This document shows positions 1-3,614 of a DNA stretch of 64,000 bases, in pieces. The position numbers were made by a program, and so were the translations under genes. Source of the stretch: Escherichia coli (lineage in GTDB: Bacteria; Pseudomonadota; Gammaproteobacteria; Enterobacterales; Enterobacteriaceae); the NCBI RefSeq assembly GCF_002854065.1, contig NZ_CP024147.1. The stretch is one strand, 5' to 3'. The notes beneath the pieces are model-generated. The model was not told the DNA's origin, did no database searches, and saw only the letters and a list, made by a program, of their open reading frames with translations. Position 1 is the first letter of the stretch. Every line of letters begins with the position of its first letter.

Positions 1-3000
1 GTTCCGCGCCGGGCGATAGCTTCATCCAACCCTTTCAACAACGTTTTGCACGGCAGATTCATCTCCTGTGCCCACGCCAGCACCAGCGCCCGATGCAATA
101 ACGGCATGTTATCTGCCTGCTCGGCATAACTGTCGAGCATATGCTGCCAGTATTCCGGTTGTTGCGTTACGCCGAGCGCCTGGCTGGCCTGCCAGTCGGC
201 GTACCATGCCCATGCCGTAAGGAAGGCGTCACCATTGCCATCTTCACCCCACCAGGTAAAGCGCGCTCCGGGCCCCGCCAGTTGCATCAGCCGCAGACGG
301 TTATCCTGAATCATCTGACGAATGTCGTTAGCGGCGGCACTTTGATGATCGGCAAGCGAACGCCAGGCGAGACTGAGCGGGATCAGACGGCTACCGGTGT
401 TGATCACCCCACCCCACGGTTCATCGACTATCGCATCAAGATTGTTGCGGAAAATCTCCTGCGGCGTTTCACTACTTTGTAGCCGGATATTGCTCGCCTG
501 CTCGGGCAACATCAGCGCGTTATCGCCACCGCCGAGCATGACATTTTTCTGCTGTTCAACGGGCCAGCTGTTATCCACAAAAGACAGTTTTGTGCTAATG
601 CTGTCCTGCACTTGCCCATTTTGTTGCAGTTCTGCACTTAACAAGCCAGATTGCTGAATGTTCTGCGTCAGCGAAATATAATTCGCCCCTTTGTGCAGCG
701 TCAGCGTCTGGCGCATCTCAGCGCCTGCAAATTTAGTCACCAGCGCCACCGGTTCGTTATCCTGCTGACTGAAGATAAACAGTCCTGCCGCCGGTTTGTC
801 GCCCACGCGATACACCGTTGGCATACTCCACTTCATGTAGAGATTTTTTTCCGAACGCAGATAAGCACGCCCCTGCCCGACCAGCCCGTCGCCGTTCATC
901 CCACGCGCGGTGATACGCCAGCGGGTTAACGAATCAGGCATCAGGAACGTGAAATACGCTTTGCCTTGTTTATCGGTTGTGAGTGACGGCATCCATGCCG
1001 CGGTATCCACCTCTTCACGCCGTGGACGTTCAAGCATTTTTACTCGCCGCTCGCTGCGGTTAGTTGCGCCAGGCGCAACCGGCTCGCTGGAGAGCGCCTG
1101 GTCGTAGCTGATAAACGACAGACTGGAGCTGGTACGCACATTGTTACGCCCCAGCGGATAGAAAAATTTGCCGATATTCGGCGCGATTTCTGGTTGCAGC
1201 GCGTAGATCATTTCATCGACCACGCCTACCGTTAGCTGCGCAGAAACAGGTTTACCTTTCAGCGACGAGGTTAATTCGACATTGACCAGTTCACCAGGCT
1301 GGTAATGGGTTTTGTCCGTTTTCACCCGGATATCCAGCTGAGGAACGGCAACTTTGATCCCGGCGTTCTGAAAACTGTACTGACCGTTACGGGTATACAG
1401 CACCGAAAAAGTGATGTTAGGCGCAAAGGAATTGCTCACTGGAACACGGGCTTCATACTGAGTATCGTTTAAACGTTGTAGCGTTAGCCAGTTTGCCGGA
1501 TGCGAAAGCAGCGACTGCTGTTCCACGCGATCGCGTTCCAGCGTCAATAATGCTTCATCAATTGGCTCCGGGAAGGTAATCAGCATCTTCGCGGTTTCGC
1601 CAGGCTGGTACAGCGTTTTATCTGCCACGATATCTACCGTACCAGTATGCGACATGCTGCCCTTACCGCTGACTGCATGGCTTAACCCGGCGAGAATTAA
1701 GCCGTCTTTATCGCGTAACGTCAGATTGTAGTTGCCAGGTTTATCGAAATTGACGGTAAAGGATTTGCCGCCAGACGGTAGCTCTCCGCTATGGCTCGTG
1801 CGGTCTTCGAGACGCAACCATTCATACGTAACAGGAACCTGTTTTGAAGATTCCAGCGCGGCATAACGGAACACAACCGACTCGCCGCTATTACTGTATT
1901 GTGCGGCGGTACTTAAAGAGTAATGCGCCAGGCCGCGTTCAATGAGGATCTCTTTGGTGGTGGTGACGCGATACGCCGCGCCGTCACTGGCGGAGACGGT
2001 TAACAAATAGCGGCTCGGTTTATCGGCGGCGGGGAGATTTAACGTCACATGACCGCTGGCGTCGGACACCGTTTCACTGCCTTCCAGCGACACGGGGAAA
2101 CGTCCGGCATAACGCAAATCGTTACCGACCATTGATAATTGCTGAGCGCGCAAACTTAACTGCACGCGGGCATTTTTTACCGGCTCGCCATCCGGGTAGA
2201 GAAGTTGCAGTTTGCCGCTGACCGCTTCGCCAGTTTTGAACTCTTTTTTGTCGAGAGCTAAACCAATCTCGAAATGTGGCTTGATATAGTTGGCTACGCG
2301 AAAACTACTGCTATAGACCTGATTGCGGTAAGCAAGACGTAACTCATAACCTCCGGCAACGGCATTTTCTGGCAGGCGGAAACTTCCCTGCCCGCCATTG
2401 CGCGCATCCAGCGTGACATCGACGGTTTGCAACAGACTGCCGTTAGCGTCCAGCACCGAAAGCTTCGCCGGGGCGCTGACGATGGGGGATGAATGCAACG
2501 GATCGTGGAACTCGCGGCCCATCACTTTAACATCGACACGATCGCCTGCGCGATATAGCGGGCGATCGGTAAAAATATACAAGCGGGTGTTGTAGATTTC
2601 GCTTTCGTAGAAGAAGTTCTCGGAGACAAAAACGCCGCCTTCAGCATCCTTACCCAGAATGTATGAACGTTCTGGCGATATATGTTGTAACTGCAAGGTA
2701 CCGCTGTCATCGGTCACACCGCGGGTCATCACGCCAAGACCGTCAGTCCACAAGATCTCTGAGCCGGGCTTCGCTTCACCCTGTTTTTTACCCGCGGTCC
2801 ACACCAGAAGCTCTTTGCCTGACACTTTGCTAAGCGCCACGGTATCGGAAACAAACACCACCGTCGTCGCCCGATACCCACCAACCATCGCCTCGACGAG
2901 GTACAGTCCCGGCTCTTGTTGGCCGAGAGGAATATAAATGTTACCCGGCTGCGGCGAGATGAAATTGCTGGATGCGCCTTCCAGTTTTACCCCTTGCTGC

Positions 3001-3614
3001 GGCTCGACCGGTTTAGCCTGCCATAATGGGTAACGGAACTGTTCCACCAGGGGATATTTTTTCAGCGGGGAAAACTGGTTGTTCTGTACATAACGGGAAG
3101 GTTTAATAATGGCATTGCCGAGATGTAATTCGGGTAATGCCTGAGTCACATTCTGCCGTGACTGAGAAGAGAAAGTACGCTGCATCACGCGGCGAGATTT
3201 GCCGTACCAGTTATCCCACAGCCAGGTCAGCGTATTGTTCAGCCCGTCGCCCAGATATTGCGGTTGCACCACAATGCGATGCAGGTTTTTCTGCTGGCGC
3301 AAAAATGCCATCGGGTCAGGAATACGATACAGGCGAACGTCCACGCCGCCGTACTCTTCCATCTGATAGCGCCGATAATCACGCCCCGGCGCTTCCAGTC
3401 GCACTTTCGCCTCTTCACTGCTGCTAAAACTGCTGTCAGCAAGCAAAAAGAATGTTCCCCCTGCGGGCGGCGCATAGTTACTGGAAGGAAGCGAATCATC
3501 AGCATTAGCAAGCCCTGTTCCCACAAGAGACAGGGACAAGCACGCTGCTATCGCGCCAGAAAATTTAAACGATAAATGCCAATGAAATTGGGATTGGAAT
3601 CGTTGGGTATCCAT
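1..3614 (-). CDS. yfaS: alpha-2-macroglobulin family protein YfaS (partial; 3' end lies beyond window start)
   Basis: Minus-strand frame is open from an ATG at 3612-3614 to position 1; no stop, so absent from the ORF track. Hand translation gives a signal-peptide-like N-terminus ([38 protein letters not shown]...). Start overlaps the yfaT 3' end. Synteny yfaA-yfaT-yfaS downstream of gyrA as in E. coli. Confidence 0.8.

Follow-up and report, generated by a model that had tools for sequence, protein, structure and literature searches.

The closest described relatives of the locus analyzed here are the Type II bacterial alpha-2-macroglobulins, the biology of which is set out in PMC3735191, PMC5764988 and PMC12663445. 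MagD (PA4489), encoded in the magABCDEF operon of Pseudomonas aeruginosa, is one such Type II macroglobulin (PMC3735191, PMC5764988). Experiments in P. aeruginosa demonstrated that MagD traps proteases non-covalently and forms a complex with MagB at the inner membrane (PMC5764988), and a figure legend of the same paper describes a magC deletion mutant from which the processed 100-kDa form of MagD is missing. Escherichia coli normally has both macroglobulin types, I and II (PMC5764988), and yfaS is already known as a Type II macroglobulin gene.

The window, that is, the whole stretch of 64,000 nucleotides of E. coli DNA that was analyzed, begins inside yfaS. Codons 1-1204 of 1534 occupy positions 1..3614 of the minus strand, and the 3' part of the gene lies off the window edge. 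Translation from the ATG at 3614 to position 1 gives 1204 codons with zero stops, a reading frame too long to have arisen by chance; the frame of at least 1204 codons described in an earlier, sequence-only reading of this DNA is thus confirmed. Pfam matches within it comprise an MG2 domain (aa 344-440, minus strand 2295..2585, 9e-27), an A2M_BRD or bait-region domain (aa 661-806, 1197..1634, 5e-18) and an A2M family domain (aa 871-953, 756..1004, 2.5e-12). A bMG10 domain at aa 1415-1517, visible only in a full-length relative and beyond the window, completes the macroglobulin architecture of a Type II protein.

The search for MG domains and a thioester that the same reading had proposed returned the MG2 domain and no thioester. 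A regular expression for CXEQ (C.EQ) finds no match in the 1534-aa YfaS of relative L001, codons 1205-1534 being known from relatives' sequence; this protein contains only two cysteines, at positions 25 and 1189, and no Pfam thioester domain matches the full-length YfaS of the relative. A phmmer search of full-length YfaS against PDB sequences gives only a marginal match to complement C5 and does not reach the ECAM, Sa-A2M or MagD structures, and no NCBIfam model matches YfaS, YfaT or YfaQ. Sequence and gene order identify YfaS as the orthologue, in E. coli, of MagD from P. aeruginosa, a bacterial alpha-2-macroglobulin of Type II without a thioester.

Operon context points the same way. The tightly packed genes run yfaA-yfaT-yfaS-yfaQ-yfaP, with yfaS third, and correspond to magB-C-D-E-F, so that the partners of yfaS encode DUF2138, DUF1175/MagC, DUF2300 and DUF2135/YfaP_C proteins. 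The placement of yfaS in a yfaA-yfaT-yfaS operon, as first proposed, is borne out and extends to yfaQ and yfaP, which are seen in relatives only; the operon has five genes, not six. An intact yfaA (DUF2138, 562 aa, minus strand 4163..5851), the MagB counterpart by gene order, has a stop codon that overlaps the yfaT start as ATGA. Between gyrA and yfaA there is no magA-like DUF2135 paralogue, and a promoter scan of this spacer finds no sigma-70 consensus. A terminator-like hairpin follows gyrA in the spacer, at 5980-5963.

The sequence-only reading took yfaS to be a split pseudogene in K-12. It is indeed annotated as a pseudogene there (b4500, formerly b2227/b2228), but no indel splits it. Alignment locates the lesion: K-12 yfaS differs from that of the window's lineage by 82 substitutions, zero indels and one stop in K-12, and this sole lesion, W1368* (TGG>TGA), corresponds to a window coordinate of about -487, some 490 nt past the edge. 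The K-12 frame is likewise open across the same 1204 codons. Since the nonsense codon lies outside the window, the 1204 open codons are no evidence of a contrast with K-12, and their use for that purpose fails. In other respects the two genes are alike, sharing locus, length (4605 nt), start and yfaT overlap; they differ in that codon 1368 is TGA in K-12 and TGG in the window's lineage and in other sampled E. coli. The exact K-12 nonsense haplotype is present in 364 of 5,426 complete genomes. All four carriers sampled are K-12 derivatives; each of the three non-carriers sampled reads TGG at codon 1368, and its yfaS CDS of 4515 nt is unflagged. An intact yfaS is the usual state of E. coli and the K-12 laboratory lineage is the exception, one that stems from a single lineage-specific nonsense mutation. 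The open frame seen here is therefore ordinary.

Whether yfaS stays open beyond the window was judged from relatives. Of the 5,426 complete E. coli genomes, the one that matches the window best reaches 99.0% over 25 kb; much closer draft genomes, two SNPs away, were found by an exact-protein look-up with YfaA. The closest draft, L013, differs from the window at 2 of 15,851 nt, and CUWW06 and 100416 show 0 differences over 1-3614; each of the three encodes a yfaS of 1534 codons. No draft is identical to the window, which alone has G at 5853. Because all 12 of the closest relatives carry an uninterrupted 1534-codon ORF, full-length yfaS is very probably intact in the source strain, the last 330 codons being judged from these genomes. 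A private lesion in those codons, W1368* or another, would make the gene a pseudogene here as well. The window ends at codon 1204, so a K-12-type lesion would be invisible from it; frameshifted yfaS occurs in some E. coli, such as 2014C-3011; and this lineage gathers nearby disruptions, namely a 5-bp deletion in yfaT and a 28-bp duplication in yfaL. Set against the unbroken gene in 12 of 12 close relatives, one of them only two SNPs away over 15.8 kb, and against the 82 within-gene substitutions that separate the haplotype of the K-12 nonsense allele from the window's lineage, such a lesion is extremely unlikely.

The translation start of yfaS is most likely the ATG at 3614. A Shine-Dalgarno sequence, GGAAGGA, lies 6 nt 5' of it (minus strand 3621..3627) within the W-K-D codons of yfaT, and the identical ATGGAAGGACACC string is kept in the homologue of metagenomic locus L011, at 47% protein identity. 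With the Shine-Dalgarno sequence inside the last yfaT codons and the start at 3614, yfaT (stop codon 3550-3548) and yfaS overlap by 67 nt (minus strand 3548..3614), or 22 codons plus 1 nt. The overlap of about 22 codons noted from the sequence at first inspection is thereby upheld, although it was missed that the overlapped yfaT is itself frameshifted. A MagC-family gene and an A2M gene overlap comparably, by 82 nt, in L011. Nucleotide conservation of the overlap against L011 is 0.64-0.69, compared with 0.4-0.6 nearby and other peaks up to 0.71; being only modestly above its flanks, it is not counted as strong evidence. A 63% homologue, L012, was dropped from the overlap question because its assembly has many split genes.

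The leader encoded from this ATG also resembles what the sequence-only reading called a signal-peptide-like N-terminus, and the hydropathy profile agrees: a long polar n-region (R5, K17), a hydrophobic core spanning roughly residues 14-30 and, at residues 36-40, ANA followed by DD. From this profile and homologue N-termini we predict a 38-residue signal peptide (minus strand 3501..3614), its cleavage site placed after ANA. The residues around Cys25, I-A-A-C, are lipobox-like; the ANA-DD site is present as well. Homologues of 46-57% identity have N-termini of the same type with a long N-region, and gene calls in other genera retain a long leader in which the motif QF(H/Y/R) is conserved. The search behind this comparison used a 369-aa N-terminal YfaS query and yielded only fragmentary proteins of at most 640 aa, which serve to compare N-termini and not as a survey of the family.

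PGAP calls a different start. In every RefSeq genome inspected, near-identical ones included, it annotates a 1504-aa yfaS CDS from the GTG at codon 31 (minus strand 3522..3524), which would leave no yfaT overlap, no overlap-mediated coupling and no classical signal peptide. Apart from this GTG the only other in-frame start is a TTG at codon 26, and both would truncate the hydrophobic core. Initiation at GTG 3524 would drop the n-region and most of the core, an implausible product for a periplasmic A2M; it would also disregard the strong Shine-Dalgarno sequence ahead of ATG 3614, the long leaders called in other genera, the overlap of the same type in L011, and the curated K-12 start, which is the same upstream ATG. 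We consider it quite improbable that GTG 3524 is the true start, and the PGAP assignment is probably a systematic mis-call that cuts off the signal peptide.

The damaged gene in the window is yfaT (DUF1175/MagC family; minus strand 3548..4166). Its alignment with K-12 yfaT, which is intact (207 aa), contains a single 5-nt gap, giving a pseudogene of 619 nt against 624. The deletion falls in the signal-peptide codons at 4125..4133, where K-12 reads GC(TGTGT)2TGTTGCC and the window has one TGTGT, and a premature TAG at 4116..4118 ends the native frame after 16 codons. We propose that a 5-bp slippage deletion produced this state in the window's lineage. PGAP flags yfaT as 'frameshifted' in near-identical genomes, and the window holds no intact yfaT frame with an N-terminal signal peptide. 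What is left is an ORF of 187 aa from ATG 4111 (minus strand 3548..4111) that spans the MagC fold in full but lacks a signal peptide. Its residues 2-186 align to residues 27-211 of MagC (PDB 7BK8) at E=1e-102, homology that extends across the whole NlpC/P60-like domain, and YfaT matches PF06672 at 1.4e-57. At best, re-initiation at ATG 4111, which lies 4 nt downstream of the premature TAG and shares its frame with the remaining yfaT, would yield a leaderless YfaT retained in the cytoplasm.

The frameshift might also silence yfaS-yfaQ-yfaP through lost translational coupling or Rho-dependent polarity, in which case the strain would be as deficient in the Type II system as K-12. The native yfaT frame is over after 16 codons, the yfaS start and its Shine-Dalgarno sequence lie inside yfaT, the genes are tightly packed, and the figure legend cited above (PMC5764988) has the magC deletion mutant lacking processed 100-kDa MagD. 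Yet yfaS has a strong Shine-Dalgarno sequence of its own, and ribosomes could stay on the message by re-initiating, ATG 4111 being only 4 nt past the stop and in the yfaT frame. We regard silencing as somewhat unlikely. The reading we prefer, that 1-3614 comprises codons 1-1204, out of 1534, of an intact MagD-type yfaS and that yfaT is the gene that is damaged, is held with high confidence. It qualifies the proposal that this strain retains a system K-12 has lost: yfaS very probably is intact, but intactness is its normal state, and the claim for the system is weakened because yfaT, the magC orthologue, carries the 5-bp frameshift. The system is damaged in this strain in a different gene (yfaT) than in K-12 (yfaS).

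Natural E. coli yfaT alleles have one, two or three copies of the pentamer (TGTGT/GTGTT). The -5 allele, present in 11 of 4,919 genomes, is rare yet recurrent, having appeared on four or more unrelated backgrounds, and a +5 allele with three copies is present in other genomes. Such recurrence of ±5-bp slippage is a small population-genetic curiosity. A bolder interpretation, which we think very doubtful, is that the pentamer acts as a recurrent slippage switch, the -5 state giving, through termination at TAG 4118 and a restart at ATG 4111, a leaderless cytoplasmic YfaT while yfaS-yfaQ-yfaP are still translated; if true, slippage would relocate a MagC-like peptidoglycan-binding partner instead of plainly destroying it.

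The window's lineage carries another nearby disruption, the 28-bp duplication in yfaL. Two relatives, L016 and L020, have wild-type yfaT and a K-12-like C at 3926. Reversion from -5 was considered for them and rejected, as basal rooting of both explains the data: with L016 and L020 basal, as the C at 3926 indicates, a single -5 event plus a single loss of the duplication in yfaL suffice.

As we envisage it, YfaS would be made from ATG 3614, directed by the Shine-Dalgarno sequence inside the last yfaT codons, and its long Sec-type signal peptide, predicted from hydropathy and homologues, would carry it to the periplasm. On the model of MagD it may then join the DUF2138 protein at the inner membrane, where cleavage of the bait region would lead to non-covalent trapping of the protease, and it may aid resistance to peptidoglycan-targeting effectors. 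These functional statements are carried over from P. aeruginosa. The importance of the locus beyond annotation hygiene is small. K-12 carries W1368*, so codon 1368 needs repair before Type II macroglobulin results are drawn from K-12; and since yfaT is broken here and not yfaS, intactness must be asked gene by gene across the operon.

Against the known systems, YfaS stands with Type II. Type I macroglobulins (ECAM/YfhM of E. coli, Sa-A2M of Salmonella) share with it the superfamily, a periplasmic location and the bait-region logic, but they have a CLEQ thioester and a lipobox and adjoin pbpC, whereas YfaS lacks CXEQ and a Pfam thioester domain. The Type I combination of CLEQ and pbpC adjacency is absent from yfaS, whose neighbours are yfaT and yfaQ. 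With MagD it shares the MG-domain, bait-region and A2M architecture, the missing CXEQ thioester and, by prediction, an N-terminal signal peptide. At about 38 aa, the YfaS leader exceeds the 21 aa reported for MagD, and it includes a Cys; mature YfaS keeps one Cys, against a reported zero in MagD, and the I-A-A-C at Cys25 resembles a lipobox, which MagD lacks. The E. coli operon, five genes without a magA counterpart, preserves the mag accessory families DUF2138, DUF1175/MagC, A2M, DUF2300 and DUF2135 in identical order. YfaT itself closely resembles MagC (7BK8, E=1e-102), and what sets the window apart from the mag operon at this position is that its magC orthologue is frameshifted.

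Minus-strand translation from the ATG at 3614 to position 1 yields 1204 codons without a stop, bearing out the uninterrupted yfaS frame described in the sequence-only reading. The name given to the gene in that reading agrees with its megablast placement in E. coli between gyrA and the remaining yfa operon and with the macroglobulin domains that Pfam recovers, an MG-domain search having been suggested there, namely MG2 (residues 344-440), the A2M bait-region domain (661-806) and the A2M domain (871-953). Neighboring minus-strand ORFs encode a DUF1175 protein (3548-4111) and a DUF2138 protein (4163-5851/5899), and positions 1-6000 of the window are covered to at least 80% in 5,184 of 5,426 complete E. 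coli genomes (megablast). This yfaS belongs to a well-described family and is in its normal, very probably intact, form. The adjacent gyrA (6000-8627, minus strand) carries a wild-type quinolone-resistance-determining region (S83, D87).

In the RefSeq annotation of K-12 MG1655, yfaS (b4500, 4605 nt) is indeed given as a pseudogene, in line with the sequence-only reading. To locate the lesion, K-12 yfaS was aligned against the full-length gene of CUWW06, a genome identical to the window over 1-3614. The alignment contains 82 substitutions and no gaps, and a single nonsense codon, TGG to TGA at codon 1368 (W1368*), is the sole in-frame stop of the K-12 gene. On window coordinates, codon 1368 falls at about -487, beyond the edge of the window, so the 1204 codons of the window are open in K-12 too and do not set this strain apart from it. 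The contrast with K-12 is real and recorded in annotation, but it is invisible from the window. A K-12 61-mer spanning the TGA matches exactly in 364 of 5,426 genomes, and the four carriers sampled are K-12 derivatives (ER1709, an O16:H48 strain and EC600/J53-type transconjugants). All three genomes sampled from other identity bands possess TGG and an unflagged 4515-nt yfaS CDS, and strain EC2 differs from K-12 by one SNP in the 6 kb around yfaT, yet its yfaS is unflagged. Together, these comparisons indicate that the K-12 lesion is recent and confined to the K-12 lineage, and that an intact yfaS is the norm in E. coli.

The best match to the window among complete genomes reaches 99.0% over 25 kb. 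Closer relatives were retrieved by an exact-protein look-up with the window YfaA, which returned 10 loci, each with 10-kb flanks; the closest draft (L013, GCA_036586265.1) shows 2 differences from the window over 15,851 positions and has both window indels. In all 10 loci, as well as in CUWW06 and 100416 (likewise identical to the window over 1-3614), the complete ORF from the ATG equivalent to 3614 spans 1534 codons and is followed by intact yfaQ (549 aa) and yfaP (258 aa). A private lesion within the 330 yfaS codons beyond the window edge is thus very improbable. Beyond yfaP, rcsC directly adjoins the operon in relatives (CUWW06 locus, 2455-6355), and atoE and atoB do so in K-12 (K-12 locus, 1-3144); the K-12 ato genes are missing from this position in the window's lineage.

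The proposal that this strain retains a second macroglobulin system very probably holds for yfaS, open here and intact in relatives, but requires qualification because yfaT is frameshifted in the window, a lesion overlooked by the sequence-only reading. Codons 12-17 of the K-12 yfaT signal peptide read GC-TGTGT-TGTGT-TGTTGCC, and the window lacks one pentamer (the -5 allele; junction about 4133/4132). The native frame (ATG 4166) consequently encodes 16 residues before a TAG at 4118-4116. An ATG at 4111, 4 nt past this stop, opens the 187-aa remainder of YfaT, which comprises the whole MagC fold without its leader. PGAP labels yfaT 'frameshifted' in every genome with the -5 allele. Of the 4,919 genomes that match the region, 11 contain the exact -5 junction in one unbroken match; 6 more give two-piece matches spanning 71 nt, and the one inspected carries three pentamer copies (the +5 allele) and is likewise frameshifted. 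Across natural E. coli, this tract (about 4125-4133; loci L004-L007) occurs with 1, 2 or 3 copies. The -5 allele resides on at least four unrelated haplotypes. Over 6 kb these are separated by 57-201 SNPs, and one lies a single SNP away from K-12, so slippage has produced the allele repeatedly and the tract is a small slippage hotspot within signal-peptide coding sequence. At least eight sampled genomes of the window's clone, which come from different countries, have inherited the -5 allele, and their yfaS, yfaQ and yfaP are free of decay. According to the main text of PMC5764988, MagD is not markedly affected when magC is deleted; a figure legend there records that the 100-kDa processed form of MagD is missing in the mutant. 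Strain 2014C-3011 (NZ_CP027591.1) combines the +5 yfaT frameshift with a frameshifted yfaS, so multi-gene decay of the operon does happen in some wild E. coli.

The start of yfaS was read as overlapping the end of yfaT, and this 67-nt overlap is very probably real, although PGAP begins yfaS at the GTG at 3524 (3522-3524; CDS of 1504 aa). Four lines of evidence favor ATG 3614, which is equivalent to the curated K-12 start. First, GGAAGGA (3627-3621) lies 6 nt 5' of this ATG; a further in-frame ATG at 3629 has no Shine-Dalgarno sequence. Second, the only other in-frame starts before residue 40, TTG at codon 26 and GTG at codon 31, would strip the basic n-region and part of the hydrophobic core from YfaS. 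Third, homologues with 46-57% identity (a Cronobacter protein and several metagenomic proteins) possess a comparable leader, in which …QS-QF(H/Y/R)… precedes a hydrophobic stretch and small-x-small. Finally, in a metagenomic locus (47% identity) the MagC-family and A2M genes overlap by 82 nt, and ATGGAAGGACACC is conserved with GTG replacing the E. coli ATG. The PGAP start recurs in RefSeq genomes generally, removing the predicted signal peptide and masking the overlap; it is probably a systematic mis-call spreading via WP_ protein records.

Elsewhere in the operon, yfaA ends and yfaT begins within a shared ATGA, the yfaQ GTG directly follows the yfaS stop, and 4 nt separate yfaQ from yfaP, a tight packing compatible with the proposed translational coupling. 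In the gyrA-yfaA spacer, 2 nt 5' of the annotated yfaA start codon, position 5853 is the window's one private SNP (G, versus C in all 12 close relatives). Further along, the minus-strand autotransporter adhesin gene yfaL (9637-13399) contains a 28-bp tandem duplication at 12867-12922, two copies of CATTAGCGATGTTATTGCGAAACACGGC, which splits it into ORFs of 173 and 1127 aa. Five drafts from the window's clone (L013, L014, L016, L020 and L021) share the duplication; CUWW06 and 100416 lack it and encode an intact yfaL of 1244 aa.

The yfa operon is a Type II bacterial alpha-2-macroglobulin system, with the function of YfaS transferred by homology. The suggested search for a thioester motif found neither C-x-E-Q nor the Pfam thioester domain in full-length YfaS, whose only two cysteines are residues 25 and 1189. 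Its neighbors in the operon are members of DUF2138, DUF1175 (now MagC in Pfam), DUF2300 and DUF2135 (YfaP_C), and YfaT matches the MagC crystal-structure sequence (PDB 7BK8) over its whole length (E=1e-102). The Type II system was described in P. aeruginosa as magABCDEF, where MagD is periplasmic and inner-membrane-associated, requires MagB for stability and, without a thioester, still traps protease following bait-region cleavage (PMC3735191, PMC5764988). The mag operon also defends against T6SS effectors that target peptidoglycan (PMC12663445), and both A2M types are stated to be present in E. coli (PMC5764988). Compared with P. aeruginosa magABCDEF, the E. coli operon has no magA counterpart and so comprises five genes.
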